A stretch of 64,000 nt of DNA from an uncultured Candidatus Saccharibacteria bacterium. GTDB lineage: Bacteria > Patescibacteriota > WWE3 > UBA101185 > UBA10185. Location: contig CAZXUJ010000001.1 in the NCBI GenBank assembly GCA_964643995.1, positions 5,622 to 69,621 on the forward strand, written 5' to 3'. Within the stretch, counting starts at the first letter, position 1. Each line of letters opens with the position of its first letter. The notes beneath the pieces are model-generated. The model ran no database searches. It saw only the letters and a list, made by a program, of their open reading frames with translations, and was not told the DNA's origin. Shown piece after piece: positions 14,121-39,868 of this stretch. Position numbers and translations under genes: made by a program.

Positions 14121-14894
14121 TTATGTGACCCCCTTAACTTTGGAAGCCATAATATCTGCGATGTCTATCACATTTAAGCCCTCGAGATCGTTTTTATCAA
14201 GTTTTTCAAACGCCATAGGTAGCTCGGTGCATCCAAGAAAGACATCCTTAATACTATATTCCTTAAGCTTTTTGACAAGTTCTTTGGTTCTAAGAACTAA
14301 CATATTAGGATCTTCAATGTTTTCTATATCTTTGTTAGCGCTAGAGTAATCAGCAGGTGTTTCGGAGGAAGCTTTGGTGCGCCATATAATCTCCTGAACA
14401 TGCTCCTGAATTTCATCTAGTCCTTTGTTTGTGGGGGTATCAAAATCAGTTGGATTTAGCAGTTTTGAAGTTACAGACGTTCCCAGCCATAATGGTCTTT
14501 TATCGCGTTCTGGGAAAGCTTCTTTTGCAATCTTAAAACTTGAAAATATTTCAAGCCCAGGCATATCCTCGTAAAATTCCCGGTGTTGCTCTAGGTCCTG
14601 AGCCCAAAACTGCAGGGTATTGCAGGCAATTATAATTTTGGTATGGCCTTTTTGCCATTCCTTTCTGATTGCATCTAAAAGATCAGCGTAGACACCTGGA
14701 TTTGTACTTCGAGTATTTTCTACAACTCGAGGTCTAATGCTAACTTCCTGATAGGCAATATCAAGCCCTTGAGCTTTAAATTTACTTTCGAAAGCCCGGC
14801 CAGAAGGCTCATCCGGGGCAATTATTACATACTGTCCTTCAGTTACCTTTTCAAAATTTTCGGTGTGTTCAATACTGTGGACTTCGTTGATCAT
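14121..14894 (-). CDS. Asp/Glu/hydantoin racemase superfamily protein (aspartate racemase-like)
   Basis: Two catalytic-Cys motifs: KIIIACNTLQF and VFLGCTELPM. Confidence 0.68.
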   Translation of the reverse strand: MINEVHSIEHTENFEKVTEGQYVIIAPDEPSGRAFESKFKAQGLDIAYQEVSIRPRVVENTRSTNPGVYADLLDAIRKEWQKGHTKIIIACNTLQFWAQDLEQHREFYEDMPGLEIFSSFKIAKEAFPERDKRPLWLGTSVTSKLLNPTDFDTPTNKGLDEIQEHVQEIIWRTKASSETPADYSSANKDIENIEDPNMLVLRTKELVKKLKEYSIKDVFLGCTELPMAFEKLDKNDLEGLNVIDIADIMASKVKGVT

Positions 14895-14915: not shown

Positions 14916-14990
14916 TGGAGCGAGAGACGGGGATCGAACCCGCGACCTCTTCCTTGGCAAGGAAGCGTTCTACCACTGAACTACTCTCGC
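14916..14990 (-). tRNA. tRNA-Gly (anticodon GCC)
   Basis: Reverse complement GCGAGAGTAGTTCAGTGGTAGAACGCTTCCTTGCCAAGGAAGAGGTCGCGGGTTCGATCCCCGTCTCTCGCTCCA; anticodon stem CTTCC/GGAAG, loop TTGCCAA. Confidence 0.85.
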
Positions 14991-15047
14991 GAGCAAAGCG
15001 AGTGAGAGGTAGTGATGTACTCATCACGTCACTCTCGCAATCAAGCT
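14991..15047 (-). promoter_or_regulatory. Conserved structured leader/upstream element of tRNA-Gly(GCC) (hairpin GTGATG-TACT-CATCAC)
   Basis: Immediately 5' of the tRNA on the minus strand. Homologous element at 39809-39868 upstream of tRNA-Gly(CCC) with a compensatory T:A to C:G change. Confidence 0.45.
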
Positions 15048-15753: not shown

Positions 15754-17028
15754 GTGAGTGTAAACTTCCATCCCATTAGTGAAAAGATAAAAAAATCCTT
15801 ACTTGATGAAATTTTTATGAAGAGTCTTAAGAATCTTCACGTTTCACTTTTTACCTTTAGGGGGGCAGGAAAACCCTATGAACTACAATATATCCTAGAA
15901 AAGGAAAAAGAGTTTTTTAAACCTGATAGAGTATTTGTTTGGATTGATTTACGTTATATTTTTAATCAAGCTTTTCTTAGTCAAGCCTGCCATGTATATA
16001 CCTTTTCTAGCGAGATTAAGCTACCTGGTAAATTCGATGCATGGGAACAATATCTAGCATTCTTTCACGATGAGTATGTTGCAAAAGGCTACAACATTAC
16101 ATTTGTATTTCAAGGTATGCGTTTATGCTATTCATTAGGGTATGATCCTGTACCATATGTCAGTGTTATCTCAACATTGTTGAGACTAAATCCTGATAAA
16201 TGCTCTGGAATATTTCTAGTTGATAAAGAACTTGATAACAAAACAAAAAACACATTGCTAGATATTTATCAAAGCATGCTTCACGATATTGTATGGGGTG
16301 GGACAGTTCTGTTTGACATTGAGTCAGCCAAGTATTTGTTTGATCAAAACTCTAGTATTGTAACTGAGGTAAGATTCACTGAAGAGTTTAAAACAGCGCT
16401 TACAGAAATGTGCATAGGTGATCCTAATGCTACCAAACATTTTATAATGAAAGTTTATGCGGAGCCGACCTTACAAGAAAAATTTGTAGCGGGGGACAGC
16501 AGTGCTAGATTTGATTTGTTTGATTCTGTATGGCTAAACACAAGGTTTGAGGATATCCTAGACAATCTCACATTTGCATCAAAACATTTCCTTCTGACAC
16601 AAGAGGGCACACCATCTGAATTCTTACTTAAAACAGGCTTGGTATCTGAAATGCCCATAGCGCACGGATATAAAGTTATGAGTAAGCTTTTTGAGCTATG
16701 GCTCAATCACAACAAGAGCAGGTTACTCGCTCCTGTAGAACAAACAATCACTCAAATAACTTCAAATGATAATAAGGCAATTGGAACAAAAATTAATGAT
16801 GCATTAACTGCACAAGAACTACTTGTCTTTGAATATCTACAAAAACACTATAGTGAACTTGTGACGAAGGATAGTTTAGCACAAGTGATATGGGGTAATG
16901 ATTGGGAAGAAAACTATAGTGACTGGGCACTAGATAAATTGACATCTAATCTTAGAAAAAAGCTGAAGGAAACTAATGCTCCATTTAACTTAAAGTCTTC
17001 AAAAGGTAAAGGCGTTGTACTGATATAA
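15754..17028 (+). CDS. Putative transcriptional regulator: C-terminal OmpR/PhoB-type winged-helix DNA-binding domain, novel N-terminal domain
   Basis: C-terminus LLVFEYLQKHYSELVTKDSLAQVIWGNDW...LDKLTSNLRKKLKE...KGKGVVLI matches the Trans_reg_C pattern. No receiver domain. N-terminal ~300 aa unassigned (FTFRGAGKPYE is a possible P-loop-like segment). Confidence 0.5.
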   Translation: MSVNFHPISEKIKKSLLDEIFMKSLKNLHVSLFTFRGAGKPYELQYILEKEKEFFKPDRVFVWIDLRYIFNQAFLSQACHVYTFSSEIKLPGKFDAWEQYLAFFHDEYVAKGYNITFVFQGMRLCYSLGYDPVPYVSVISTLLRLNPDKCSGIFLVDKELDNKTKNTLLDIYQSMLHDIVWGGTVLFDIESAKYLFDQNSSIVTEVRFTEEFKTALTEMCIGDPNATKHFIMKVYAEPTLQEKFVAGDSSARFDLFDSVWLNTRFEDILDNLTFASKHFLLTQEGTPSEFLLKTGLVSEMPIAHGYKVMSKLFELWLNHNKSRLLAPVEQTITQITSNDNKAIGTKINDALTAQELLVFEYLQKHYSELVTKDSLAQVIWGNDWEENYSDWALDKLTSNLRKKLKETNAPFNLKSSKGKGVVLI

Positions 17029-17140: not shown

Positions 17141-18085
17141 CTACCTACTTACAACGTCTTCCGGGAGAGGTACATAGGTTGTACCAATGCTTCCAATACC
17201 CTCAATTGCGATGTAAGCGTTTTCACGTGGAATTGTCATGTAGCGCCCGGAATCACCTTCGCTGACAATTGAAATTCCCTCACGATGAGTCGCTACATCT
17301 AAGCAACTGGCGCCTTCGCCACATCCTGAGGAACCTACATAAAAACTTACCCCTGCGCGCTCAAAACTTGCAAAACCCGATTTGTAGTTCGCGCTTTCAA
17401 GCCAAAGCCAATCACCGGTGTAGGTGATGGTGAAGAAGTACCTCTCTTGGTTTCTTTCTCCCTCACTTGGGAATGTTTCAACCAAAAGCTCTATGATCGA
17501 GAAAACCGGCAATTCAACGAAGAATCTTCTGCCTGATGCAACCACGTAATTGTCAATGGTCGCATCATAGAGCGTTAAGTCAGCATTAGCAGTCAAGGTC
17601 ACATCGAGTAAAAAGGTCCCCTCGTCGAGGCCAAACTCCAAACCAGCGGGCAACCAGTTTTGCCCGATTTTGTTATCCAGATGGGCGTAAACTTCGATTT
17701 CACCCCACCGATAACCCCCATTAGGTAAACCGTTATGCAAGTACTGCTCCCAGCTGACTCTGATAGTTTCCTCGTCTAGGCTGGACAAGCGCAAACCATT
17801 TTGCGTCTCCTCCCACTGTGTGTAAACTTCAACATCACAGGTTTGGTGCTCGTAAGGAACTTGATCCCCATCACCCTTAATTTGAACTACACAGGGTGTG
17901 CTGGTAGGCGTTTCGGTTGGGGTATTGGTTGGCGTGCTTGTCGGCGTTTCGGTAGGGGTATTGGTTGGTGTGCTTGTCGGCGTTTCGGTTGGGGTATTGG
18001 TTGGTGTTTGAACACTCTCAGGACAGCCGCAGGCACTGAAAAACAATACCATAAATACAAAACTAATAACCAATTTCTTAGACAT
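17141..18085 (-). CDS. Lipoprotein/secreted protein with Thr-Pro tandem-repeat linker
   Basis: Signal peptide plus Cys (LFFSACGC); PTNTPTETPTSTP x3 encoded by a 36-bp tandem repeat; globular C-terminal domain unknown. Confidence 0.6.
   Translation of the reverse strand: MSKKLVISFVFMVLFFSACGCPESVQTPTNTPTETPTSTPTNTPTETPTSTPTNTPTETPTSTPCVVQIKGDGDQVPYEHQTCDVEVYTQWEETQNGLRLSSLDEETIRVSWEQYLHNGLPNGGYRWGEIEVYAHLDNKIGQNWLPAGLEFGLDEGTFLLDVTLTANADLTLYDATIDNYVVASGRRFFVELPVFSIIELLVETFPSEGERNQERYFFTITYTGDWLWLESANYKSGFASFERAGVSFYVGSSGCGEGASCLDVATHREGISIVSEGDSGRYMTIPRENAYIAIEGIGSIGTTYVPLPEDVVSR
17895..18010. repeat. 36-bp tandem repeat x ~3.2 (ggtgtgcttgtcggcgtttcggttggggtattggtt), in-frame within CDS 17141-18085
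   Basis: Three near-identical consecutive 36-mers seen directly; encode TPTSTPTNTPTE units on the minus strand. Confidence 0.85.
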
Positions 18086-18581
18086 GTTTTTGTCCTCCGT
18101 ATTGACTGTTGATAAGGATTAGTATTAGCTTCTCCGCCAAGAAGCTAAAGTAACCGCGCTGAATACAAATTATGTATTGTACTCAAAACGGTTACTTCAA
18201 CATAGCGGAACAGCTTAGCTAACAGTAGGTTTTCAATGTTCAGAAACCTTGTTTGCAACAAAATTTCTGACCCCATTTTATACTATAGGTTGTCTGTAGC
18301 TTGAAGTATCTTGAGCCAACCTGACATATTCTGACTAGCGTTTTTTGCTTTAGTTATAAATGAAATTTAAGGTTTATGGAGCACCAGTCGAGTCTGGAAA
18401 CCCACAAGCAAATTATACTCTCCAGGCTAGAAATGAGACAAATAAGACACTATAAAAAAGGGAATGGTTCTATAATTCTCTAGGTTATGCAATTTTGCCG
18501 AGAATCGTTTGGTTAATAGTTTTGTATATAGTATTTAAGCCTCGTCAGTACGTTGTAGCCAGTGATATAATCGCAATTGAA

Positions 18582-20402
18582 ATGAAGTTAACTACCGTTA
18601 AAATAGAAAATTTTAGATCCATAAAAGATCCCATAGAGGTTTACATCGAGGACACTACCACTATTTTTTTAGGTGCTAACGACCACGGCAAAAGCAACTT
18701 GCTCTATGCGATTCAGAAATTAAACGCTGACAAGCCTATTTTAGAAGAAGAACGAAATTGGGATGTGCCTCAAAGTGTAGGTGAGCCACGAATTGAGTGG
18801 TCATTTTCTTTGTCGAATGAAGATAAGGATAGTTTAACAAAGATGTGTGTTCCTGCCGTTGTTAAAGTAGCTGAGAATAAAGATGGTGTGGAGGCTCAGT
18901 CTGCAGAAGTATTGGATGCCACGGTTTATTTAAAAACTAATTCTTTAGGGACACTGACTTTTGAACGTTTGGGAGTCAATACTCCGATTAAGGTGATAAG
19001 CGTTCCTGATGAGTTTGAAATACCCAATTTAGAAGAAAATGAGAGCAAGTTAGTTGCAATGATACCGAATGTGGAGCTTTTTGAATCTCCAGAAATTAAG
19101 GTTATCGATAGTATAACTAGGGAAGAATTGGATAAAAGTGACTTTATGCAGGGTATATTCATGTTGGCAGGAATTTGGGACCAAAAGGATGAGGTGTTTA
19201 ATCAAAATCCCAAAACTGAAAAAATGCTATCCCAAGCTTCTGATAAATTAACCAAGGAGTTAAGGAATACCTGGCAACAAGGATCCAAACTAGAATGGAG
19301 GTTTTCCCACCTTAGAGAGGAAAACCGTATTGGAATAACCATTGGGGATCCTGCTGTTAGCACTACTTTTGTCAAGCCTTCGTTAAGATCGTCTGGTTTT
19401 AAAACATTCTTTTACATTTCAATGACGATTGATGCCCGTTCCAGAAAAAATAATAATGGTCATTTTATATTTATGTTTGATGAGCCAGGTACATATCTTC
19501 ATCCAGCCGCGCAAATAGATTTACAACGTAGCTTTGAAAAGATTGCGGAAAAAAATCAAATTATATATACAACTCACTCCATATTTCTGATAAGTAAAAA
19601 CTACCCGAAGCGAAATAGAGTGGTCTTAAAAACTGATAATGGCACCAAAGTTGATCAGAAGCCTTTTAGAAAGAATTGGAAAGCCGTTAGAGAGTCCCTA
19701 GGTGTTTTATTAAGCAATAACTTTTTAATAGCAGACAAGACTTTATTAGTAGAGGGACCTTCGGACATCGTTTATATTTGGTTAGCGTTGCGAAAACTTA
19801 AAGATGCTGGAAAGGTAGATATAGATTTAAACGATATAAATATGGTAGATGCTAATGATAAAAGAAATTATATCTTAATGGCGAAGTTGATGTTAACCGA
19901 GGGTAGAAAGGTTACTGCATTAGTGGATGGTGACGATGGAGGTAAAAGTATTCAGGATGATTTAAAGAAGCTATGTGGTGGAGAGTTGAAAAGTAAAGAC
20001 CTCAAGCCGTTCATTTTGGAAAGCAATAAATCTATAGAAAATGTTTTGGCGGATGTAGACACATTAAAGATTGCGGCAAAACAAGTCGCTACAGAGCTTG
20101 TGGGCGCTGGGTTACTTGCATATAAATCTGGTGTGGCTATTGATACTGCGGTTAACGATATTAAGGAGGATTCCAGTGTGACGTTAGGTAAGACCCTAGA
20201 AAATGTTACAGGTACATGGTTTGAAAACGAGCAATCTTTATCAAAATTGCAGGTAGCAATGAAGTATGAGGACATTGTTCTTAGTGGTGGCGGAAACATA
20301 AACGAACGTTCCGCGGAAACATGGTTTAAGAGACTTCAAAAAGAGATGGAACTACGTAGTGAAAAAGAGCCAGAAAGCGGAGTTATAGATCAAATAGATT
20401 AG
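18582..20402 (+). CDS. OLD-family (overcoming lysogenization defect) ATP-dependent nuclease: N-terminal ABC-type ATPase + C-terminal TOPRIM
   Basis: MKLTTVKIENFRSIKDP...FLGANDHGKSNLLYAI (OLD N-terminus/Walker A); FMFDEPGTYLHPAAQ...IIYTTHS (Walker B, H-loop); C-term LLVEGPSDIVYIW (TOPRIM). Start set to Met at 18582; ORF extends to 18495. Confidence 0.8.
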   Translation: MKLTTVKIENFRSIKDPIEVYIEDTTTIFLGANDHGKSNLLYAIQKLNADKPILEEERNWDVPQSVGEPRIEWSFSLSNEDKDSLTKMCVPAVVKVAENKDGVEAQSAEVLDATVYLKTNSLGTLTFERLGVNTPIKVISVPDEFEIPNLEENESKLVAMIPNVELFESPEIKVIDSITREELDKSDFMQGIFMLAGIWDQKDEVFNQNPKTEKMLSQASDKLTKELRNTWQQGSKLEWRFSHLREENRIGITIGDPAVSTTFVKPSLRSSGFKTFFYISMTIDARSRKNNNGHFIFMFDEPGTYLHPAAQIDLQRSFEKIAEKNQIIYTTHSIFLISKNYPKRNRVVLKTDNGTKVDQKPFRKNWKAVRESLGVLLSNNFLIADKTLLVEGPSDIVYIWLALRKLKDAGKVDIDLNDINMVDANDKRNYILMAKLMLTEGRKVTALVDGDDGGKSIQDDLKKLCGGELKSKDLKPFILESNKSIENVLADVDTLKIAAKQVATELVGAGLLAYKSGVAIDTAVNDIKEDSSVTLGKTLENVTGTWFENEQSLSKLQVAMKYEDIVLSGGGNINERSAETWFKRLQKEMELRSEKEPESGVIDQID

Positions 20403-20449: not shown

Positions 20450-22231
20450 TTACTTTCTATTTTCCTCATTTTTCTTTACACTCAACATTAAACTTTTCTT
20501 TTCATCTGACCAGTACAGTTTTATATCCTTCTCTTTTTTAGGCGGATACTTTTCTAAAAAATCTTTGTTCTCGGCTACCATAAAAACCTTACAATATATG
20601 GAACCTTTAATATCTTTCAGCTGCCTTGCTTTTAAAAACCCTTGTCTAACAAGTTTATCCCTAGTAGATGGATGTACACTATAGTCCGACTGTATCTGCC
20701 AATCTGATATCCACTGGCCTTCATTACTATAAACATGTTTTAGATCATGCGGTATAACGCCTTCCTTAATATTTCTCCAACAATCAGCACATCTAATACC
20801 GTCAAGATTCCACCACATTTTGTCGCCTGCGAAGGATCTTCCGCATATTCCACAGGTATAGCTTCCACCATCAGATACCTCAAGGAAGAAACCCTCGGGC
20901 TCTTTTTCCAATCTTCGCTTACGAATATTTTCTATGGCATCAAACTTTCCCATATGCCTTGCCAGTTGCACAATATTGTTTAGTTCCAAATGTGATCTTT
21001 TATTAGGGTCGCTAATTGGGTTTGGTTCTTCCTTAATTTTCCCAGTTATCGTTATTAAATCTTCCTCACGCTCGTAGCCTTTAAGTTTTCCGGATATAAA
21101 TCCAAGCCTATTTGATAAACCCTCTGGCATTAACCGCCAATTAGTTTTTTCAAGTGTATCTTTAATGAGTTTTTGAAGATCATACATGCTTACACGCTTA
21201 TTCCTCTGAGTTTCAGTTTCCTGAAATGAAAACGGAACAATTACAAACTGACCCATCTCAGGTTTATCGAGTGAAAATTTAACATAGCCTTGTTTTTCAA
21301 AAAGGGGAGTTAGGAGCTTTTCAAGTTCTCCGATTCCAAGCTTTTTAATTTTGGAAACCTGCTCATAAACTGGATTATCGTATTTACGCATCTCATCGTC
21401 ATGCGCAAACTTGGAATATTCCAATGCTTCTAATATTTCGAGGTTTTCTTGACCCTGTTTATCATCAAGGCAGTATTCCGCACGGTATTTTTCCAAAAGC
21501 GCTTTGTTTTCAGCTTCTTCTTTCGCCCGTTCTTCATCTTTTTTACTAAAATCATCTACGTCAATATCTTTATAACCGCAGGAAGCACATTTGGTAGTCC
21601 ATGTAATGACTTTATCCTTAACTTTAGTTGTGACTTTTACTTCTTTACCGCATTTAGGGCAAAGATTTGGTTTTGGAACATAAACTTCTCCGTTATCATA
21701 AATAGCTTGGCGTTTCTTACAGGCAGAACAGTCAAACATGAAACAAACCCGCATCGGGGTATCCGTATAATCCTCAAGGACTTTAGAACTGTAGCTCATT
21801 TGAGTGTTGCATTTTGGGCATATAACATTTTTTGGTTCTGTCGCGTTATCGTAATAATCCTGCTTGGCTTTATCCTCAGCCATTATTTTCTCAATAAAAT
21901 CCTTTTTTCTTTTATATTCGTTTGTTTTAACTACAAATAAATGCCTGCCTAAAATAAGGCCAAAATCATGTTCTTTTTTCTCATCTGTTAAGGATTTAAG
22001 TTCGGGATCGTTAAAGTGTTCTTTGTATGCTTTTCGCCAAAATTCTATTGTGCGTAGACATTCGCGTATGGTTGAGAGGTCGTATATATCTATGTAGTAT
22101 TGCTCGGGTTTTAGATATTCCACTAAAAACAATATACTACTTTCTAATGTGAGTAGAATATTCACGATTTTCTTATAAAAAACTCGTGTTATTCTGGTAA
22201 TATAAGTTAAGATGACAAAATCAGAAGACAT
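20450..22231 (-). CDS. Large multi-zinc-ribbon protein, unknown function (start uncertain)
   Basis: At least three C-x2-C...C-x2-C pairs (CPKCNTQM...CSACKK; CPKCGKE...CASCGY; CGICGRS...CADCWRN). Convergent with OLD gene, divergent from MTase. First ATG would overlap the MTase start by 20 bp, so the true start may be an internal Met (e.g. ~21883) or a non-ATG start. Confidence 0.45.
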   Translation of the reverse strand: MSSDFVILTYITRITRVFYKKIVNILLTLESSILFLVEYLKPEQYYIDIYDLSTIRECLRTIEFWRKAYKEHFNDPELKSLTDEKKEHDFGLILGRHLFVVKTNEYKRKKDFIEKIMAEDKAKQDYYDNATEPKNVICPKCNTQMSYSSKVLEDYTDTPMRVCFMFDCSACKKRQAIYDNGEVYVPKPNLCPKCGKEVKVTTKVKDKVITWTTKCASCGYKDIDVDDFSKKDEERAKEEAENKALLEKYRAEYCLDDKQGQENLEILEALEYSKFAHDDEMRKYDNPVYEQVSKIKKLGIGELEKLLTPLFEKQGYVKFSLDKPEMGQFVIVPFSFQETETQRNKRVSMYDLQKLIKDTLEKTNWRLMPEGLSNRLGFISGKLKGYEREEDLITITGKIKEEPNPISDPNKRSHLELNNIVQLARHMGKFDAIENIRKRRLEKEPEGFFLEVSDGGSYTCGICGRSFAGDKMWWNLDGIRCADCWRNIKEGVIPHDLKHVYSNEGQWISDWQIQSDYSVHPSTRDKLVRQGFLKARQLKDIKGSIYCKVFMVAENKDFLEKYPPKKEKDIKLYWSDEKKSLMLSVKKNEENRK

Positions 22232-23057
22232 TAAAATTAATCAAATAATTCTTGGGGATTGCATAACAGGTATGGAAAAACTACCTGATAGGTCAGTTGA
22301 CTTAGTGATTGCTGATCCCCCTTACAATGTATCAAAAGGTAACAAATGGAAGTGGGATAACAGCGTTAAATTACAGGGATTTGGTGGAAATTGGAATAAA
22401 ACCATGGAAGATTGGGACAACATGTCACTTCAAGATTATTGGAGTTTCACTGAAGCTTGGTTAAATCAGGTTTGTAGAGTGTTGAAACCCTCGGGGTCTC
22501 TTTGGGTATATGGAACTTATCACAATATTGGAATAATTAATGTAATTATGCAGAAGCTGGGGGTCGAAATGTTAAATGAAATAATATGGTTTAAACGAAA
22601 TTCATTTCCTAATTTATCGGGCAGACGATTTACTGCCAGTCATGAAAATTTGATTTGGGCCCACGTCGGTGGAAAAAAGCGACAGTACTATTTTGATTAC
22701 AAGAAAATAAAGGAAATGCAATTTCCTGAAGACAAGATAAAAACTCCAGGAAAACAGATGAGAACTGTATGGGACATACCAAATAACAAGGAGGCTTCGG
22801 AATTGAAATTTGGAAAACATCCTACCCAGAAGCCGTTGCGTTTATGTAGAAGAATTTTATTAGCAACAAGCAGGCCATCAGACTTGATATTGGTCCCATT
22901 CTGCGGTTCTGGAAGTGAATGTGTTGCCGCAAAAATGCTTGATAGGAACTTTATAAGCTTCGAAGTAGATCAGAAATATGTTGATATCGCTAATAAGCGT
23001 ATTGAGAATACTGATGTTAAAGCAAATTTATTTAATCTTTCTTTGGATACTCTATGA
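22212..23057 (+). CDS. DNA amino-methyltransferase, beta-class (N4-cytosine or N6-adenine)
   Basis: Motif IV LVIADPPYNV precedes motif I ILVPFCGSGSECVAAK (beta-class order). Confidence 0.8.
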   Translation: MTKSEDIKINQIILGDCITGMEKLPDRSVDLVIADPPYNVSKGNKWKWDNSVKLQGFGGNWNKTMEDWDNMSLQDYWSFTEAWLNQVCRVLKPSGSLWVYGTYHNIGIINVIMQKLGVEMLNEIIWFKRNSFPNLSGRRFTASHENLIWAHVGGKKRQYYFDYKKIKEMQFPEDKIKTPGKQMRTVWDIPNNKEASELKFGKHPTQKPLRLCRRILLATSRPSDLILVPFCGSGSECVAAKMLDRNFISFEVDQKYVDIANKRIENTDVKANLFNLSLDTL

Positions 23058-23911
23058 ATGAAGTCGGTAAAAAATTAATTCCACCTGTTATTAAGTGGAG
23101 CGGTAGCAAGAGACCTGTTGCTTATCAGTTATCACAGTATTTTCCAGAGACTAAAAGGTTCTTTGATCCATTCGTTGGAGGTGGTTCTATATTACCGTTT
23201 TTCTTTGGTAAAAAGGCTTTTGTTGGTGACGTAATTCCAGAGTTAATATTTCTTTGGGAATCGATTAAAACGGATCCAGACAAAGTTATTAATGAATATA
23301 GAACTAGATGGGAATCACTTAAGAATAATGGATACACTGAGTATTACTCCATTCGGGACACATTTAACGTAACAAGAAATCCTATGGATTTCTTGTTTTT
23401 AAGTAGAACCTGCGTGAACGGTTTGATTAGGTATAACAAAATAGGGGAATTTAATAATTCATTACATCATACACGCTCAGGTATAGATCCCGAACGTTTT
23501 GCCCCTATAATTAAAATGTGGAGCAAATGGATTCAACAAGTGTCGTTTCTCAATCAGGATTATCGATTAACATTAAAGGAAGTTACTAAAGGAGACACGG
23601 TATTTTTAGATCCCCCATATGTGGGTACAAAATCCAGATACATACCTCAAAAATTCGACTATGCAATTTTCTTTGATGAACTTGAGAGGCTAAACAGCAC
23701 TGGTGTTAACTGGATTCTCACCTTAGACGGTAATGCAGGGGATAGATATTATGATAGCAAGATTCCAAAAGAATTATATAAGGCCAGTATTAAGGTAAAT
23801 ACAGGAAAGTCACCGTTTTCAAAAGTAATGAATAATAAACAAGACAGTATTAGCGAATCAGTGTACTTCAACTTTCAACCAATTGCCAAAATGCCTAACG
23901 CGGTTTTGTAA
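23054..23911 (+). CDS. Dam-family (D12 class, alpha) N6-adenine DNA methyltransferase
   Basis: N-term IKWSGSKRP...FDPFVGGGS (motif I) then LDPPYVGTKSRY (motif IV); start overlaps previous MTase stop (ATGA). Confidence 0.8.
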   Translation: MNEVGKKLIPPVIKWSGSKRPVAYQLSQYFPETKRFFDPFVGGGSILPFFFGKKAFVGDVIPELIFLWESIKTDPDKVINEYRTRWESLKNNGYTEYYSIRDTFNVTRNPMDFLFLSRTCVNGLIRYNKIGEFNNSLHHTRSGIDPERFAPIIKMWSKWIQQVSFLNQDYRLTLKEVTKGDTVFLDPPYVGTKSRYIPQKFDYAIFFDELERLNSTGVNWILTLDGNAGDRYYDSKIPKELYKASIKVNTGKSPFSKVMNNKQDSISESVYFNFQPIAKMPNAVL

Positions 23912-25855
23912 AAATGATTCCAACCATTTAGCAGATTCCTTAGTTTTTATATGCAGATGTACCTGTCCATTTTCTATAAACTCCACGCCAACTATTACAT
24001 CAGAGTTACTTTTTGAGTTTGCAATATTCATATCCTCGTATTTTGTATATCTAAAAGCAGCTACCGAGAAAATCTTTTGCTCCTTTTCCTTGTACTCTTT
24101 ATCGAATACTCTCCATGAGACTTCATCTTTTTCTCTATATACATTAGGCCCAGTTCTGGTTAATTCCTTAACATATTTGATAAGTCGGGATCCAATATCC
24201 GTTTCTAACGATACGCTCGTATCTTTAGATTCGATGCTTAAAATATATACTTGGTTATTTGAGTGTTTTATTTGAAAAATATGGTCAGGTCTTTTAGAGA
24301 GTGTACCAGATACACGTGGTAAGGATACCCATCTATACTCGGTACCATCTTCAAAATTAAAGATTGATATACCACTCCAATTACCTCCTGGAGGGTTACA
24401 AAGACCTTCGAAGAAAGTCTCATCTTTATGTAAGTAAAATATTTCATGTAATACCGAATCTACATCGTGTTCGCCAAACTTTTTTGGCATAAAGGTATTA
24501 ATTGGTTTGTCTAATCCTGCTTGTAAGTGTTTCTCATATTTAGTTGGTATAACATACATTACTTTGTCAGATCGTTCTGTTGTTTTAGTGTCCACAATTA
24601 TTGCGTTGCTATAATTTAATACCGCTTGCCAGAGTCCATTTGTTTGAGCCAATTTCCAAATGTTACCAGTAACTTCTTTTAATGTTGTAGTAGGACAAGG
24701 ACCGTAAATTATTGTTAAAACATCGACATCATTTTCTCCTGTTACCATGCGCAAAAGTGGTACTAGTCCTCTGTCCGGTCGTGAGTCATCCCCTCTAGGC
24801 TTGAATCCAGCAACCCACGCTATGAACAATGGTTTCTCTCCATTTTTTATCCAATTTATAGATTCTGCGTCTACCTTTGATCTGTATATTGTTGCTACAA
24901 GCTGACCAAGTTTATGTCGTTCAGTAGTACTTAGCAAGCAAAACGGAAGATCTCCCGAACACACAGCTACAGCCTTGTTATTTGAAACACTTGAAAGCAA
25001 CTTCTTAAATGAATTAGATGTTGGAATTGAAACGCGCTTATTCCATGGTATTCTCTTATCAATAAGTAAATCGGCTATTTGAGATCCTTTGTCAAAGTTC
25101 AACAATTTTTTCCATTCGTTGTCTTGTAATATGCCACCTTTGTTTTTCCTTTGGCTGGCAAGAAACAAAGTGAGTTCCAACGCTTTATTAGCTAAACTTT
25201 CTGCATAGCTGCTGTAATTGTCATTTTCTAGGATAGCTTTGATAAATAGCTGTAGTTCTTTACCAGCAAAGAAACGAGAATATTTTTTGTATAAGTCTGC
25301 AGAAATGGATGGGCTGGGAGAATAAATTGGAAGTGTAATAGTGCTATATCTTTTACCAAGGGATAGGTATGAAAACGGAATGATTGGGTTTGGAAATCTA
25401 GCGGCCTTAGTATTTCTATCTGAATCTAACTCTATACCGCCTAATTCTGCAAAATATAAATACGGTATTTTAGCCTGAGCACTACTAATAGCCCTGCCAC
25501 TTCTTTGCCATGCATTATTACCTGCGGGTAAGGCACCACAAAATTCCATTGATAGGATTGGCTTTTCGATTTGTAACCCATTTTTTTCATATTGCTTCGT
25601 AACTATTGCATCTGTAGCCTCTCTAAGTTTTGCCCCGTTTACTTCTAAAACTGTTTTAATGTCATAATCCCATCTATCGTACCCTGGAAATAGCTGTATC
25701 TCATATCTTATTTCAGAGTTGGAAAGTGAAAATTTTGGAACATAAAGTGGACCATCGATAGGTACAAGTTCAAGCTCCAATGATGAGGAAATAAGCCTTA
25801 GTGCTTCTTCACATTCAAGAATATTATCACCGTAGATATTTAGTTTTGTTACCAT
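23858..25855 (-). CDS. Putative restriction endonuclease (candidate Type IIS-like partner of the two MTases)
   Basis: 665-aa ORF convergent with and overlapping the 3' end of the Dam-like MTase gene. C-terminal PD-x17-ExK-like arrangement: RPDHIFQIKHSNNQVYILSIESKD. No other family signal. Confidence 0.4.
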   Translation of the reverse strand: MVTKLNIYGDNILECEEALRLISSSLELELVPIDGPLYVPKFSLSNSEIRYEIQLFPGYDRWDYDIKTVLEVNGAKLREATDAIVTKQYEKNGLQIEKPILSMEFCGALPAGNNAWQRSGRAISSAQAKIPYLYFAELGGIELDSDRNTKAARFPNPIIPFSYLSLGKRYSTITLPIYSPSPSISADLYKKYSRFFAGKELQLFIKAILENDNYSSYAESLANKALELTLFLASQRKNKGGILQDNEWKKLLNFDKGSQIADLLIDKRIPWNKRVSIPTSNSFKKLLSSVSNNKAVAVCSGDLPFCLLSTTERHKLGQLVATIYRSKVDAESINWIKNGEKPLFIAWVAGFKPRGDDSRPDRGLVPLLRMVTGENDVDVLTIIYGPCPTTTLKEVTGNIWKLAQTNGLWQAVLNYSNAIIVDTKTTERSDKVMYVIPTKYEKHLQAGLDKPINTFMPKKFGEHDVDSVLHEIFYLHKDETFFEGLCNPPGGNWSGISIFNFEDGTEYRWVSLPRVSGTLSKRPDHIFQIKHSNNQVYILSIESKDTSVSLETDIGSRLIKYVKELTRTGPNVYREKDEVSWRVFDKEYKEKEQKIFSVAAFRYTKYEDMNIANSKSNSDVIVGVEFIENGQVHLHIKTKESAKWLESFLQNRVRHFGNWLKVEVH

Positions 25856-26141
25856 ACAAGTCTATCCAATTTAATTGATATCCCAAAAATTTATCAAGAA
25901 ATATTAATTTCACTTTATAGGATATTGCAATATGGCCTTTTTATCAAGGAACTTAGGAAATTTTAAGCGGGATACTAATCTTGCACACTTTTTCGCTAAA
26001 ATAGAATTAATAAGCTTAAAAACTTATTTAAGAAATCTGAACAAAGGCACTTGTCACTTTAGACTTTAGCCATTGAACACGCCAAATGACCAAAAAGCAT
26101 ATGTAAAGTATGTAGTTATTTTTGTGCCTAAAAGGAGGCTT

Positions 26142-27470
26142 ATGGAAGAAAAATTAAATATAGTTTACGTACAAGTTAATAAATTAAACCCTGCCCCATA
26201 TAACCCCAGAAAGTGGGATGAGGACGCGTGTACAAAGTTAAAAGAAAGCCTAACAAAATTTGGCTTTGTTGACCCGCTGATAGTTAACTCGGCTCCAAAT
26301 AGAGAAAACGTGGTCATCGGAGGACACTTCAGGCTCAAAATGGGTATAGAGCTTGGTTTCAAAGAAGTTCCCGTTGTCTACGTTAATATTCCTGAGCTTG
26401 AAAAAGAAAAGGAATTAAACCTAAGACTTAACAAAAACGTTGGTACTTGGGATTTTAAACTATTGGCAGAGTTTGATGCATCGTTACTTGGTGATATTGG
26501 CTTTTCGAGCGAGGAGTTGGACGATATATTTGGAATCGACGATACACCTGAAGAATTCGACCTTCAAAAAGAACTTCAGAAGCTAAATATTCAAAATATT
26601 AATATCAAAAAAGGCGATGTGTATAAGCTTGGTGATAGTAGGCTAATGTGTGGCGACTCTACCGTCGACACAGATGTTCTAAAGCTATTTGGTGATGAAA
26701 AAGCCGATATGTGCTTTACCGACCCACCCTATATTCTTGATTACTTAAAAGGTAAGAAAAAAGCTGGTAATGCAATTACTGGCTTTGGTGCGAAACGTGA
26801 TCGTAGGTACCTTGAAACCGATGTTTTGCCCGATGATTTTACTGAAAAATGGATGGCAAATATTGCAAAGATCCAAAAGGAAAGCTTTTCAATTATTGTT
26901 TATGAAAATTGGAAAAACATACGAACCATTTGGGGCGAAATGGAAAAGTATTGGAAAGTTAAAAATATGATTGTGTGGCATTTACCAAATCGTACCCAAG
27001 GGTTTGCAGGCAAGTATAGATTCTTTTCCAAGCACGATATTGCAATGGTCGGAGCTTCTCCGAATGCCAATATCGATTATAACTTAGAACCCGAAGAAGA
27101 CGGTCTTCAAAACGAATATGAAACAGCACTTTATGCGATTTCAGGTAAACCTCAATGGGAAAGCTATAAGCATGGTAAAAAGTACCAGCCAACGGACTTT
27201 ATTGAGTATGTTGCCTCGGATGAAAAAAGCTCAGGCCAAGGCATCATATTTGGCACGAAACCACTTGAAATACTAATTCCATACATCAAAGTACTTACAA
27301 AACGCGGAGATCTAATTGTTGAACCTTTCGGTGGAAGTGGTTCAACTCTAATTGCGGCTACAAAAATGAACCGCAGATGTTACTTAATGGAAAAGTCGCC
27401 TGTTTATGCTGAAGTTATTAAAAACCGTTGGGAAAAACTTACGGGTCTTAAAGGGGAGCGATTATTATGA
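26142..27470 (+). CDS. ParB-like nuclease domain fused to beta-class DNA amino-methyltransferase (phage-type)
   Basis: N-term ParB/Srx fold (LNPAPYNPRKW...VIGGHFRL); MTase motif IV FTDPPYILDY then motif I VEPFGGSGSTLIAA. Start set to ATG at 26142, which has AGGAGG 6 nt upstream; ORF extends to 26073. Confidence 0.75.
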   Translation: MEEKLNIVYVQVNKLNPAPYNPRKWDEDACTKLKESLTKFGFVDPLIVNSAPNRENVVIGGHFRLKMGIELGFKEVPVVYVNIPELEKEKELNLRLNKNVGTWDFKLLAEFDASLLGDIGFSSEELDDIFGIDDTPEEFDLQKELQKLNIQNINIKKGDVYKLGDSRLMCGDSTVDTDVLKLFGDEKADMCFTDPPYILDYLKGKKKAGNAITGFGAKRDRRYLETDVLPDDFTEKWMANIAKIQKESFSIIVYENWKNIRTIWGEMEKYWKVKNMIVWHLPNRTQGFAGKYRFFSKHDIAMVGASPNANIDYNLEPEEDGLQNEYETALYAISGKPQWESYKHGKKYQPTDFIEYVASDEKSSGQGIIFGTKPLEILIPYIKVLTKRGDLIVEPFGGSGSTLIAATKMNRRCYLMEKSPVYAEVIKNRWEKLTGLKGERLL

Positions 27471-27886
27471 GTAAAGCAATTGAAGATAGGCAGAAAAAAG
27501 AACGCGCGCTACTTCTTGAAACGTTTAAGAAGACTCCAATTATTCAACTGGCTTGCGAAAAGTCTGGTGTTGGCAGAGCAACATACTATCGATGGCGACA
27601 TGAAGATTCCGAATTTGCACTTCAAGCAGATTTGGCTTTAGAGGAAAGCGTGGGGCTTATGAATGACCTTGCCGAATCTCAGCTTTTATCTGCGATAAAA
27701 GAAAAAAACATTACAGCTATTATATTTTGGCTTAAGAATAGACATAAGGCTTATACAAACAGGGTTGAAATAAATGCAAAAGTAGAATCAAAAAATGCGG
27801 AACTTAGCCCAGAACAAGAAGATCTAATAAAAAAAGCGCTTGGCTTATCAAGCATTGTTGCAAGCGGAGGTACGAAGGATGATTAA
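27467..27886 (+). CDS. Phage terminase small subunit-like HTH protein
   Basis: 139 aa, HTH IQLACEKSGVGRATYYRWRHEDSEF, immediately upstream of and overlapping terL; ATGA overlap with previous gene. Confidence 0.5.
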   Translation: MSKAIEDRQKKERALLLETFKKTPIIQLACEKSGVGRATYYRWRHEDSEFALQADLALEESVGLMNDLAESQLLSAIKEKNITAIIFWLKNRHKAYTNRVEINAKVESKNAELSPEQEDLIKKALGLSSIVASGGTKDD

Positions 27887-29396
27887 CTCCAGTTTATGCA
27901 CGGATGATATTGATAAGATAGTAAAAGACCCTAAGGTCAGAAAAGAACTAACCCGCAAAAGTCATTATTTGTTTTTCCATATTTACTTTGCTAGGTACGT
28001 CAAATATCCAACAGCTGATTTTCAAAAAGAAATATTTGAGCTGACTGAAAAGCCAGACGCGATGCTGTATGAAATCATTGCTTTTAGGGGTTCTGCTAAG
28101 TCTACAATAATGTCGTTATCACTCCCGATTTGGTCACTTATTAATGAGTCACAGAAGAAATATATTTTGCTTTTGAGCCAAACTCAGCAACAGGCTAGGC
28201 AAGCGTTAATCAATATAAAACGAGAGCTTGAAAGTAATGCATTACTTATTAATGACTTTGGACCATTTGATGAGGATAGTGATGAGTGGCGCACTAATTC
28301 ATTAGTTATTCCTAAATTTGATGCTCGAATTTCCGCGGCTTCTACTGGTGAAAGTATTCGAGGTGTAAAGCACGGTGAGTATCGACCTGATTTAATAATC
28401 GCGGACGATGTGGAGGATTTATCATCAGTTAAAACAAAAGAAGGTCGGGATAAAACGTACGATTGGTTTACTGGTGAAATCGTTCCCGCAGGTGATGTAA
28501 ATACTCGAATATTTTTAATTGGTAACCTTCTACATGATGGCTCTTTAATGGTTCAAATTAAAGAACAAATTCTTAGTAAAAAATTACGGGGTATATTCCG
28601 CGAGTACCCATTGGTAAGTGAAGACAAACAAATATTGTGGGCTGGCAAGTTCCCAAACAATGAGGCCATTGAGGCGTTAAAAGCTACAGTACCTAGTGAA
28701 TCAGCCTGGTCACGGGAATATTTGCTTAAAATAATCTACGACGACGATCGAGTCATAAAACCTGAGTGGATTCATAGATACTCCGATTTACCTCAAATAT
28801 CATGGGAAGGTTACCAATATACTGCCGTTGGTGTTGATATTGCAGTTTCTGAAAAAGAGCATGCGGATTATAGTGCAATTGTTGCAGGTATGGTTTTTAA
28901 AAAGAACGGTAATACATCCATTTATATATTGCCCTATCCAGTTAATAAGCATTTAACTTTTCCCGAACTGGAAGAAGCAATCCGTGATTTAGCTAGGTCA
29001 TTACCTACAAAAAGAAAAGTTAAATTATTCATTGAGGACGTTGGGGCTCAAAAAGCATTGGTTCAAAGGCTACAAATGTATGGGTACGATGTAGAAGGCA
29101 TAGTACCTAGGGCTGATAAACGAACTAGACTTGGTTACACGGCACAACCGTTAAAATACAAGACCGTGCAGTTGTGTAAATATGGCTGTGATGAATTAGT
29201 AGACCAGCTAAGCAATTTTGATTATGTAAGGCATGATGATCTTGCTGATGCCTTTTCACTGCTTGTAAATAAGGTTTTAGACGACGCTACAATAAAAAAG
29301 ATACAACCAAATATCCGTGTTCTATCTTCCACTAATAGTTTTAGAACGGTAGGTGGTGGAAGTGCCAACGACGTTGCAAGTTTCTTAAGAAGCTGA
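27879..29396 (+). CDS. Phage terminase large subunit (ATPase + RNase H-like nuclease)
   Basis: Walker A FRGSAKST, Walker B DLIIADDVED, C-terminal nuclease motif GVDIAVSEKEHADYSAIV. Start set at ATG 27879, preceded by GGAGGT. Confidence 0.75.
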   Translation: MINSSLCTDDIDKIVKDPKVRKELTRKSHYLFFHIYFARYVKYPTADFQKEIFELTEKPDAMLYEIIAFRGSAKSTIMSLSLPIWSLINESQKKYILLLSQTQQQARQALINIKRELESNALLINDFGPFDEDSDEWRTNSLVIPKFDARISAASTGESIRGVKHGEYRPDLIIADDVEDLSSVKTKEGRDKTYDWFTGEIVPAGDVNTRIFLIGNLLHDGSLMVQIKEQILSKKLRGIFREYPLVSEDKQILWAGKFPNNEAIEALKATVPSESAWSREYLLKIIYDDDRVIKPEWIHRYSDLPQISWEGYQYTAVGVDIAVSEKEHADYSAIVAGMVFKKNGNTSIYILPYPVNKHLTFPELEEAIRDLARSLPTKRKVKLFIEDVGAQKALVQRLQMYGYDVEGIVPRADKRTRLGYTAQPLKYKTVQLCKYGCDELVDQLSNFDYVRHDDLADAFSLLVNKVLDDATIKKIQPNIRVLSSTNSFRTVGGGSANDVASFLRS

Positions 29397-29560: not shown

Positions 29561-29657
29561 GTCTTAACATAGCTTAAGATCAAATAAAAGACTTGCCTTT
29601 GATTAGTTTTTGCGTCATCCATTGGCGCTAGTAAAAACTTATTTCAAAGGAGGTCTT

Positions 29658-32322: not shown

Positions 32323-32327
32323 TTACT

Positions 32328-37259: not shown

Positions 37260-37279
37260 GTCATCAATGTGTTGATGAC
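37260..37279. promoter_or_regulatory. Perfect 8-4-8 palindrome GTCATCAA-TGTG-TTGATGAC overlapping the serine recombinase start codon
   Basis: Seen directly; position suggests an operator or recombinase-binding site. Confidence 0.4.
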
Positions 37280-38579
37280 AGAACAAGAAAATAAAAATCT
37301 AAAGTATTGTCTCTATGCTAGAAAATCTACTGAAAGTGATGAACGACAAGCAATGTCAATAGATTCCCAAATCAAAGAAATGATGGAACAGGCTAACAAA
37401 GAAGGTCTGAATATTGTTGAAATTCGCCAAGAAAGCCATTCCGCTAAACTTTCAGGGGCTAGGCCAGTGTTTAAACAATTGATCTATGACATAGATAAAG
37501 GATTATTCAATGCAATTCTTACTTGGGCACCAGACAGACTAAGTAGAAACGCAGGAGATTTGGGGGCTTTAGTTGATTTAATGGATCGTAAACAACTTTT
37601 GCACATCAAAACCTATTCCCAGACATTTTCCAACAATCCAAACGAAAAGTTTCTTCTTATGATTCTTTGTTCTCAGGCTAAGCTTGAAAATGATCACAGA
37701 GGTGAAAATGTTAAACGGGGTATTAGAGCAAAATGTGAACGAGGTTGGAGACCCTGCATGTCTCCACTTGGTTATCATAATAGAACGATAAATGGAGTTA
37801 ACGATCTTGTATTAGATGAGGTTAAAGCTCCCATCTTACGGGAAATGTTTGAATTGGTTGCATACTGTGGGTTTAGCGGGCGCTCTGTTAAAAGATATTT
37901 AGATAAGGAAAAGAACTTTCTATCAAGACGGGGCAAAAAGTTAGCGCTTGGGAGACTTTACGAAATTCTTAAAAATCCATTTTACTGTGGGGATTTTGAA
38001 TATCCTGTTGGAAGTGGAAACTGGTACAAAGGAAAACACGAACCCCTAATAACCAGAGAACTATTCAACAAAGTACAAGAAAAGCTGGCCACTTCTGATA
38101 AACCAAATTCAGAAAAACATGACTTTCCGTTCACACGAACAATAAGATGTTCAACCTGCGGATCGCACCTTACGGGAGAGGAAAGAACAAAGCAATTAAA
38201 GAATGGAAACAGAGTTAAGTATGTTTATTATCACTGTCTGCGTGGCAAGGACAAAGACTTTGACTGCAAGGAACCCTATATCCGTGAGGATGACCTGGTA
38301 ACACAATTAGTTGAAATTATTAACGAGGTGGAAATCGATAAGGATGCTTTTACTAAACTTTTACAGGAGGAATATACAAGGTTTGCAAAATTTAAAGCTA
38401 TTTTAAACGAAGATTCTCAAAATAATGAAGAAAAGCAAAGGCTAAAAGAAATTGATATTAAAACTTTTGCAAAACACATTTTAAGATTCGGATCTAATCA
38501 GGAAAGAAGGGAAATCTTTACATTAATTAAGCAACCACTTTATCTTAAGAACATGAAACTGTATGTACACATTAACTAG
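37269..38579 (+). CDS. Large serine recombinase (resolvase/invertase catalytic domain + recombinase domain + zinc ribbon)
   Basis: YARKSTESDERQAMSIDSQ (catalytic Ser region), RLSRN, Cys cluster CSTCGSH...YYHC. Annotated start is GTG; alternative ATG at 37275. Confidence 0.8.
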   Translation: MLMTEQENKNLKYCLYARKSTESDERQAMSIDSQIKEMMEQANKEGLNIVEIRQESHSAKLSGARPVFKQLIYDIDKGLFNAILTWAPDRLSRNAGDLGALVDLMDRKQLLHIKTYSQTFSNNPNEKFLLMILCSQAKLENDHRGENVKRGIRAKCERGWRPCMSPLGYHNRTINGVNDLVLDEVKAPILREMFELVAYCGFSGRSVKRYLDKEKNFLSRRGKKLALGRLYEILKNPFYCGDFEYPVGSGNWYKGKHEPLITRELFNKVQEKLATSDKPNSEKHDFPFTRTIRCSTCGSHLTGEERTKQLKNGNRVKYVYYHCLRGKDKDFDCKEPYIREDDLVTQLVEIINEVEIDKDAFTKLLQEEYTRFAKFKAILNEDSQNNEEKQRLKEIDIKTFAKHILRFGSNQERREIFTLIKQPLYLKNMKLYVHIN

Positions 38580-39733: not shown

Positions 39734-39808
39734 TGGAGCGAGGAACGGGGTTCGAACCCGCGACCTCTTCCTTGGGAAGGAAGCATTCTACCACTGAACT
39801 ATCCTCGC
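39734..39808 (-). tRNA. tRNA-Gly (anticodon CCC)
   Basis: Reverse complement GCGAGGATAGTTCAGTGGTAGAATGCTTCCTTCCCAAGGAAGAGGTCGCGGGTTCGAACCCCGTTCCTCGCTCCA; loop TTCCCAA; differs from tRNA-Gly(GCC) at a handful of positions. Confidence 0.85.
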
Positions 39809-39868
39809 AACAAAGTGAAGAGGAGTAGCGATGTACTCATCGCGTCATCCTCGCAACAAAGTGAAATC
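39809..39868 (-). promoter_or_regulatory. Conserved structured leader of tRNA-Gly(CCC) (hairpin GCGATG-TACT-CATCGC) with flanking ~20-nt direct repeat
   Basis: Homolog of 14991-15047. Direct repeat (c/t)atcctcgcaacaaagtgaa at 39802-39821 and 39849-39868. Confidence 0.45.

Follow-up and report, generated by a model that had tools for sequence, protein, structure and literature searches.

A modular zinc-ribbon protein as the probable anchor of an integrative, terminase-bearing element with variable defence neighbours in Patescibacteria

Introduction

What is a large protein with three zinc ribbons, assignable to no described family, doing between a nuclease gene and a pair of DNA methyltransferase (MTase) genes? 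The question is raised by a 64,000-nucleotide stretch of contig CAZXUJ010000001.1 (positions 5,622 to 69,621; assembly GCA_964643995.1) from an uncultured bacterium deposited as Candidatus Saccharibacteria; this whole stretch, with its own numbering from position 1, is referred to here as the window. On its minus strand lies an open reading frame (ORF; 20450..22231) of 593 aa counted from the first ATG, which we call the ZnR (zinc-ribbon protein) gene. A preliminary description, made from the sequence alone, had read this position, between a nuclease and MTases, as typical of a subunit that confers specificity or acts as sensor or effector. Across the loci compared here, ZnR belongs to a family of modular build, keeps a fixed position and orientation relative to a terminase module, and has variable neighbours of defence type. 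We propose, with moderate confidence in the reading as a whole, that ZnR is the core anchor gene of an integrative, terminase-bearing, phage-related element of the Candidate Phyla Radiation (CPR; Patescibacteria), and that it most likely encodes a DNA-binding regulatory or architectural protein; its standing as an anchor gene is fairly secure, and the specific mechanism is tentative.

Results

A fixed place beside a terminase module

We examined about 85 loci with members of the ZnR family, 72 of them from species-representative genomes, 4 from IMG/VR and 13 from exact look-ups (locus designations, L004 and so on, are our own). In tblastn searches with proteins of the window, 27 other distinct loci proved to have, upstream of ZnR and on the other strand, a module consisting of a ParB-N/MTase fusion, a small terminase (TerS) and a large terminase (TerL), at 65-77% identity to the ParB-MTase of the window, ~50% to its TerS and 45-50% to its TerL. 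Between 0.26 and 9 kb separate this terminase module from ZnR, and the arrangement was the same in every case. In the window, the three genes lie on the plus strand at 26073-27470 (ParB-N/MTase fusion, assigned with Pfam and PHROGs), 27467-27886 (TerS) and 27840-29396 (TerL). The ParB-MTase is unusually conserved, above both TerL (45-50%) and the ZnR protein itself (~50%), and the trio is conserved in many CPR genomes with no portal, capsid or tail genes nearby (L004-L082).

The same loci share further genes with the window. Its large serine recombinase (37269..38579, plus strand), in which the Pfam families Resolvase, Recombinase and Zn_ribbon_recom are all matched, is 50-58% identical to recombinases whose genes lie just beyond TerL in L031, L036, L055, L061, L065, L073, L076 and L082, and is the probable integrase of the ZnR element. 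All-against-all clustering of ORFs also returned, as recurrent neighbours, a small XRE protein (28 loci), an S24/LexA-like repressor (17 loci) and serine recombinases. The S24/LexA-like repressor gene usually heads an operon that ends with ZnR; the window has no S24 gene. The proposed backbone runs from the serine integrase through an optional XRE gene, TerL, TerS and the ParB-MTase gene to variable cargo, the ZnR gene and variable cargo again, capsid and tail genes being absent. The neighbours at ZnR loci include no conserved primase or helicase cluster, and a triad of an FtsK-like protein, a 175-aa protein and a short form of ZnR proved to be confined to two closely related loci.

Turnover of defence genes on both flanks

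The gene directly upstream of ZnR falls into dozens of unrelated clusters, encodes anything from 70 to 1178 aa, and is usually co-directional and tightly spaced with ZnR; this hypervariability rules out a conserved partner at that position. Seven of ten sampled upstream genes are known or candidate defence genes (Dsr1, PDC-M14A, PDC-S06, CBASS E2, a Cap4-SAVED nuclease, HsdR and DUF2130), and so are four of ten sampled downstream genes (PDC-S37/Hhe, a TIR protein, Shedu SduA and an SNase effector), bearing out the defence context first suspected from the window; a KAP NTPase is also among the immediate neighbours. Family members that consist of only the N-terminal or only the C-terminal part of ZnR occur in the same kind of place, by BREX, AAA_15, UvrD/PDDEXK and CBASS genes. 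The most frequent single cargo neighbour is a ~497-aa protein (cluster 8; L009, L010, L049, L078, L080 and L081), which directly adjoins ZnR in at least nine genome loci and three viral-catalogue contigs, and which, from its N-terminal sequence, may be DUF2779-like (i.e., a Cas4-type nuclease plus exonuclease).

The immediate neighbours of ZnR in the window recur far less. Neither its restriction endonuclease (REase) nor its Dam-class MTase had a tblastn counterpart next to any other ZnR locus, and OLD/AAA_15-type neighbours are present in about three of the ~85 loci (the window, L004 and L089). When co-occurrence with OLD or MTase genes was checked across these loci, the only conserved partners of ZnR turned out to be the ParB-MTase/TerS/TerL module and the serine integrase, and the suggestion that its position marks a subunit of the flanking nuclease or MTases is not supported by these counts. 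In L014, the ZnR and ParB-MTase genes are adjacent and directly divergent, and the restriction-modification (R-M) cassette that separates them in the window therefore occupies an insertion slot. The fixed geometry relative to the integrase/terminase backbone, the turnover of the flanks and the defence identity of what lies there together argue that ZnR is a backbone gene and, by the same evidence, that it does not belong to one particular defence system.

Some genomes carry two full elements, as in L008 and L020, which lie on one contig. In L087, two short-form copies of the gene each close an operon headed by an S24 repressor, around different defence cargo, with a fragment of a serine recombinase (12664-13059) between the two units; the second copy (16135-16700) has an in-frame stop at a conserved Trp codon (VRE*QLNYDY, against KEWQL in the family). 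This locus looks like the tandem accretion of two elements, one of them decaying.

A large family of two modules

A word-indexed search returned more than 360 ZnR relatives at ~50% identity, nearly all from Patescibacteria/CPR assemblies, on contigs of up to 1.1 Mb, and either unnamed or under generic zinc-finger names. A profile search returned 996 representatives at 50% clustering, 371 of them with E<=1e-30. Among the best 150 representatives, only about 15 are full-length: most have 355-370 aa and cover profile positions 1-360 alone, and this N-only family (~360 aa) is itself large and unannotated. The C-terminal part likewise exists by itself, in proteins of ~193 aa with a short helical N-terminus of their own (101 matches at E<=0.001, none with the C module fused to a known enzymatic domain). 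Stand-alone C-type genes are present in L063-L071, L086 and L087, and in L008 the N and C parts are adjacent, separate genes. The existence of N-only and C-only families, along with this split pair, argues that the ZnR protein of the window is a fusion of two modules that are free-standing elsewhere.

No match to ZnR was obtained by tblastn in 50,697 deposited phage genomes, and the four IMG/VR contigs that carry the gene are islands of the same type, structural genes being absent; these two results rule out an origin in a complete phage. Many third-party-assembled genomes with the element (within L008-L047) are labelled "uncultured Gammaproteobacteria", "Pseudomonadales" or even "Methanobacterium"/"Bathyarchaeia". 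Because their gene content and closest relatives are those of Patescibacteria, we doubt these assignments, and either the labels or the binning are probably wrong.

Start codon and zinc ribbons

The preliminary description was right that a 593-aa ORF is present on the minus strand. Nearly all aligned homologs, however, begin with the sequence M-x-Y-L-K, about 36 residues downstream of the first ATG of this ORF, where the window offers a GTG at 22123 (MEYLK...) and, three codons upstream, a TTG at 22132. The ATG at 22231 is thus probably not the start used; we place the gene at 20450..22123 (minus strand; 557 aa plus stop), with the TTG as alternative, and predict a product of ~557-560 aa. The reported overlap between the starts of ZnR and of the divergent MTase is true of the longest ORF and vanishes with either supported start: because homologs place the start some 36 codons downstream, the overlap is an artefact of taking the longest ORF. 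The revised start lies 80-88 bp from the MTase ATG (22212), the GTG leaving a divergent intergenic region of 88 bp (22124..22211). Upstream of the revised start is a weak promoter-like site (TTGTCA-16-CAGAAT; 22218..22191, minus strand), which falls within the discarded N-terminal extension of the ORF; scans for promoters and terminators around the gene gave counts not above shuffle expectation.

Six CxxC motifs in the protein form three pairs (in full-ORF numbering, C138/C141 with C168/C171, C191/C194 with C215/C218, and C460/C463 with C481/C484). By chance, 0.43 such motifs are expected, and six were reached in none of 20,000 composition-preserving shuffles. In addition, the 12 ribbon cysteines and C254 are invariant in alignments of 30 and of 71 homologs. 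The invariance of the cysteines and the shuffle result argue that the three Cys4 zinc ribbons are real, selected features. In revised numbering, ribbon 1 (21719..21820) has its cysteines at 102, 105, 132 and 135, invariant in the 71 sequences, and is beta-rich in the structural model described below; ribbon 2 (21578..21661) has them at 155, 158, 179 and 182, likewise invariant, and draws weak DZR, ZPR1 and ECs_2282 matches; and ribbon 3 (20780..20854), supported by alignment and model, has them at 424, 427, 445 and 448 and contains an invariant WW motif (all on the minus strand). The three pairs noted earlier are thus confirmed, with the spacers between the quoted cysteine strings corrected from 20, 17 and 16 to 22, 17 and 14 residues. 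Invariance extends to residues other than cysteine in the N-terminal module: Y10, D15, T18, D92, R214, E268, R307, W329 and R339 are the same in all 71 sequences.

Predicted structure and searches for known families

An AlphaFold2 model of ZnR built on the 71-sequence alignment has a mean pLDDT of 84.9. Residues 7-93 are predicted to form a two-helix hairpin, 102-191 two beta-rich zinc ribbons, 192-248 a long coiled-coil hairpin and 264-350 a small ferredoxin-like alpha/beta domain; there follow an acidic and poorly ordered linker and, in the C-terminal part, a helix (383-405), the third zinc ribbon (421-453), a winged helix of beta-alpha-alpha-beta-beta topology (471-525) and a beta-hairpin tail. 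The N-type module (residues 1-360; 21044..22123, minus strand) comprises the helical hairpin, which carries an invariant YxDxYDLxT motif, the first two ribbons, the coiled-coil hairpin and the ferredoxin-like domain. The C-type module (residues 381-557; 20453..20983, minus strand) comprises a basic helix (RKRRLEKEPEGFFL), zinc ribbon 3, the winged helix and the tail, and was also modelled separately (mffa126531402; pLDDT 88.6). By its topology in both models, the basic winged-helix domain (20549..20713, minus strand) is putatively excisionase/BldC/Cox-like. Across the family, the median net charge is +5 for the winged helix and +3 for the tandem ribbons.

Foldseek searches with the full model against the PDB and viral models gave no match at E<=0.001. 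Partial matches were to ribosomal S24e/S6 and ACT folds (alpha/beta domain) and to NrdR/ZPR1/TFIIS-type folds (ribbons). The best match of the C module was BldC (6amk_B), with a TM-score of 0.65 on the target and a root-mean-square deviation of 2.8 A over 54 residues, and P2 Cox (4lhf; TM-score 0.55) and MarR/PadR winged helices were also matched, none of them significantly.

Searches of Pfam, PHROGs, PADLOC and NCBIfam, and of the PDB with phmmer, returned for ZnR only sub-threshold zinc-ribbon families (DZR, ZPR1, Lar and ECs_2282); a Pfam scan of the 71 aligned members and an hmmsearch of PDB sequences with the family profile likewise returned nothing beyond sub-threshold zinc ribbons. ZnR has no match to the resolvase (PF00239), Recombinase (PF07508) or Zn_ribbon_recom (PF13408) families, none in Pfam to HTH_3 or specificity domains, and none in PADLOC, including its models of partner proteins (GajB, AriB etc.). 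Ogr/Delta (PF04606) has no match in the protein of the window and weak ones in 4 of the 71 members (best E 0.0015), and PF03367 weakly matches 2 of the 71. The homolog P0010 bears the database name "ZPR1-type zinc finger"; this identity was rejected, TIGR00310 scoring 17.6 bits against a cutoff of 78.3. Because such scores are far below thresholds and the remaining architecture is unrelated, we regard this name and "RNA polymerase subunit RpoP", as given to family members, as unfounded over-annotations. No catalytic fold was found in any of these sequence, profile and structure searches, so the initial view of a protein with no recognisable catalytic domain, unassignable to any described family, stands, and clear homology to a characterised family unrelated to defence did not emerge in the searches run.

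The proposed element and its cargo in the window

Downstream of ZnR and convergent with it lies an OLD-family gene for an ATPase/TOPRIM nuclease (18495..20402, plus strand; Pfam and PADLOC). Because its AAA_15 match begins at residue 30, the true start is probably about 28 codons later, near 18579 (MKLTTVKIENF...). On the other side, between the ZnR and ParB-MTase genes, is the type II R-M cassette (22212..25855; Pfam and PADLOC), which consists of a beta-class N4/N6 MTase (22212-23057, plus strand), a Dam-class MTase (23054-23911, plus strand) and a 665-aa REase (23858-25855, minus strand; PADLOC REase_II PDLC03434, E 1.4e-130). The two MTases match two halves of one 626-aa PADLOC MTase model (PDLC03302), and the REase has no Pfam match and a weak match to a nicking-endonuclease model, which suggests a type IIS-like system with an asymmetric site. 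Judged by predicted gene content, the R-M trio and the OLD nuclease (class 1-type ATPase-TOPRIM) are each complete known systems by themselves.

The TerL of the window is a distant relative of genuine phage terminases (~25% identity), and no portal, capsid or tail genes follow it in the window. It is followed instead by a membrane protein, glycosyltransferases and a NUDIX fusion and then by the large serine recombinase: ~8 kb of glycosyltransferase, RIO-like kinase and NUDIX-glycosyltransferase genes (29610-37176) separate TerL from the integrase. These may be non-defence cargo, at a position that holds just a few small genes in related elements.

Candidate boundaries are provided by a direct repeat of ~130 bp whose copies lie 24.8 kb apart, both on the minus strand: the left copy (14916..15045) consists of tRNA-Gly(GCC) and sequence upstream of it, and the right copy (39734..39861) of tRNA-Gly(CCC) and its upstream sequence. 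Each is an intact tRNA-Gly gene plus ~42 nt upstream, with identities of 91% and 81%, and the segment that they bracket extends from two genes past OLD to just past the serine recombinase and a DUF3644 gene. The repeats may be the ends of the element, or a duplicated tRNA that it carries; no common att or tRNA integration target was found across 15 loci. Three independent loci (window 14121-14894, L005 11038-11727 and L088 14852-15556) have a gene for an Asp/Glu racemase within a few kb of a family member, which suggests a preferred chromosomal neighbourhood for the family; a shared tRNA target was not found. Inside the candidate element, a 314-aa protein, predicted to be secreted or lipoprotein-like and lacking a Pfam match, is encoded at 17141-18085 (minus strand), with a 12-nt tandem repeat at 17895-18007 that encodes TPT(E/N)TPTS units. 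No iteron array or AT-rich origin was found in or beside the ZnR gene, and a replication origin there was rejected for lack of iterons in or near the gene.

Discussion

Because ZnR has no enzyme fold and combines a basic winged helix with three ribbons and a coiled coil, we regard it as most likely a DNA-binding regulator or architectural factor. On this proposal, ZnR would bind specific DNA and oligomerise, and would control the divergent operons and/or excision by the serine integrase, in the manner of Cox, Xis, AlpA and BldC-type winged-helix proteins, with the zinc ribbons and coiled coil supplying extra contacts to nucleic acid or partners. Anti-phage systems would be exchanged on both sides of the gene, which in the window is flanked by a type II R-M system and an OLD nuclease.

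Several observations weigh against this proposal. No experiment or significant homology ties ZnR to any function: the structural matches to BldC and Cox have E-values of 0.5-2.5, and neither HTH_17 (PF12728) nor AlpA (PF05930) ranks in the top 25, by frequency, of the 51 Pfam families matched by the 71 members at E<=0.05. The terminase module lies within 10 kb in only about half of the loci with enough flank, and the link of ZnR to the element is strong and not universal; the boundaries and the mobility of the element are only putative, and no complete phage carries the gene, in either phage records or IMG/VR contigs. The invariant residues of the N module outside the ribbons could be an unrecognised active site. 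Finally, ZnR often overlaps the end of defence operons headed by the S24/LexA-like repressor, which would fit a defence accessory as well.

Such an accessory, shared among many systems, is an alternative that we consider unlikely, if one to be taken seriously. ZnR would then be a sensor or regulator that serves many effectors, like CapW or BrxR, except that its gene would close the operon at the 3' end and that the S24/LexA-like repressor from the 5' end would regulate it along with the rest. It is tightly spaced with, or overlaps, the last gene of Dsr1, CBASS E2, Cap4-SAVED, HsdR and KAP NTPase operons; in at least nine loci the rightward operon that contains ZnR begins with the repressor gene; the two S24-to-short-form units of L087 enclose different defence cargo; BREX and AAA_15 genes are found beside N-only members, too; and the winged helix resembles those that bind DNA. 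An accessory would not, however, be expected to keep one orientation relative to ParB-MTase/TerS/TerL in all 27 loci, as is typical of a backbone gene, nor to have variable cargo on both sides; moreover, the ZnR of the window is monocistronic and points away from the R-M cassette and towards OLD, the second copy in L087 is a pseudogene beside an integrase fragment, and the same types of defence work elsewhere without such a protein, for which PADLOC has no model. The fixed orientation also bears on the idea that ZnR provides defence or anti-defence by itself, as a single gene, and is simply part of the island's cargo. That idea, which we hold to be improbable, draws on its presence inside defence islands with no assigned function and on weak zinc-ribbon matches of Lar type (restriction alleviation) in 8 of the 71 members, but these matches are below threshold and cover a generic zinc ribbon alone; cargo varies in presence, position and orientation, whereas the place and direction of ZnR relative to the backbone are constant over the 27 loci, and the gene is far more conserved than any cargo gene.

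Still less credible is a role for ZnR as a subunit (for specificity, as sensor or as effector) of either the OLD nuclease or the two-MTase R-M system of the window, a view largely excluded by the co-occurrence data. ZnR does lie physically between OLD and the MTases, OLD-like or AAA_15 genes adjoin its homologs in L004 and L089, and zinc ribbons are common in nucleic-acid recognition. Yet homologs of the REase and Dam MTase stand beside no other family member, OLD-type neighbours are as rare as noted above, the three R-M genes satisfy complete type II models in PADLOC, the OLD protein has the whole ATPase-TOPRIM build of class 1 type, ZnR is on the opposite strand to both neighbours, and the family remains ~50% conserved as its neighbours change completely. 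An unrecognised enzyme of the element (i.e., an initiator of replication, or a recombinase or nuclease of a new kind by which the element or its cassettes are mobilised) is doubtful rather than far-fetched: the invariant non-cysteine residues of the N module would be its active site, and the ferredoxin-like domain would be of the kind seen in Rep/HUH or primase-type folds. ZnR is the only large conserved backbone protein with no assigned role in an element that has no conserved replication gene, Y10, D15, T18, D92, R214, E268, R307 and R339 are invariant, a ferredoxin-like alpha/beta domain is present, and the gene and the integrase occupy opposite ends of the element, ZnR being close to an island edge in L005, L088 and L046. 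Against this, HUH histidines and ATPase or primase motifs are lacking, no Pfam or PDB match supports the idea, the gene has neither iterons nor an AT-rich origin in or beside it, and C-only and N-only forms share the same genomic position, which is hard to square with a single essential catalysis.

We return, then, to ZnR as an anchor gene. CPR bacteria comprise a huge and mostly uncultured diversity whose mobile elements and immune systems are poorly charted, and the ZnR family (about 1,000 clusters at 50% identity, unannotated) together with the backbone gives a sequence marker for a recurrent hotspot of defence cargo among them. Several genes in the hotspot match no known defence or Pfam model, so that the marker could guide the discovery of new systems. 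The terminase genes, in the absence of capsid genes, raise the possibility of phage satellites in CPR, and annotation gains a corrected start codon and the exposure of unfounded names in the family. A further idea, speculative and in our judgement unlikely, is that the N- and C-type proteins, which are fused in the window, are themselves the machinery of the hotspot, either as a novel DNA-recognition or recombination factor by which defence cassettes are captured and exchanged at one fixed site of a satellite-like CPR element, or as a universal trans-acting sensor or regulator common to many unrelated defence systems; if either were true, the gene would be more than a passive landmark.

Compared with known proteins, zinc ribbons of the ZPR1, TFIIS/RpoM and NrdR types superpose with those of ZnR over 35-45 residues, but the rest of its architecture is unrelated. 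Large serine recombinases likewise have Cys4 zinc ribbons and a long coiled-coil hairpin, are ~550 aa long and belong to integrative elements; ZnR, by contrast, has none of the resolvase catalytic, Recombinase and Zn_ribbon_recom domains, all of which are present in the window's own recombinase (37269-38579). A partner of the OLD/Gabija/PARIS type was rejected for want of a PADLOC match, for adjacency in only ~3 of ~85 loci and for the convergence of the two genes in the window. C-proteins are small HTH_3 proteins encoded upstream of the REase; an accessory of a type II R-M system (a specificity subunit or C-protein) was rejected because the REase and Dam-class MTase of the window have no tblastn counterpart in other ZnR loci and because ZnR has no match to HTH_3 or specificity domains. 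The closest likeness is to excisionase/MerR-type proteins (P2 Cox, Streptomyces BldC, lambda/Tn916 Xis and AlpA of phage-inducible chromosomal islands, or PICIs), whose winged helix of about 55-70 residues has the beta-alpha-alpha-beta-beta topology that is predicted for the C-terminal domain of ZnR; the latter is basic and is encoded on an integrase-bearing, phage-related element. Those proteins are single domains of 50-100 aa, whereas the domain in ZnR follows a zinc ribbon, with 380 more residues ahead of it in the long form, and has no significant sequence or structure score to any of them.

At the level of the element, searches of the literature for prophages, satellites or defence islands of CPR bacteria that carry these genes turned up nothing specific, and the ZnR family, its N/C modular organisation and the CPR element that it marks appear to be undescribed; zinc ribbons, winged helices and the concept of a backbone gene that flanks a defence hotspot are known already. 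Like PICI and cf-PICI satellites, the ZnR element is small and integrative, with an integrase, S24/LexA-type and XRE repressor-like genes and terminase genes, and without capsid or tail genes in the sequence examined. The gene content looked for in a satellite was found across the window and the loci examined: integrase, repressor and terminase genes are present, and capsid and tail genes are absent. The element differs from these satellites in having both TerS and TerL along with a ParB-MTase, and no recognisable primase or replication-initiator module. Judged by its genes, it resembles a phage satellite or a reduced prophage lineage, a decayed prophage being equally possible. Conserved backbone genes reportedly flank defence hotspots in P2-like prophages and P4-like satellites as well, in work of Rousset et al. 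from 2022. Recombinase genes have been proposed as marker genes of defence islands (PMC13552941). The ZnR element differs from the P2/P4 hotspots in lineage (Patescibacteria), in backbone (serine integrase, ParB-MTase, TerS and TerL) and in the sequence of the anchor gene itself, which is unrelated; what ZnR has in common with the hotspot genes of P2 and P4, and with the recombinase markers, is that a conserved gene of a mobile element stands beside a slot in which defence systems are exchanged.

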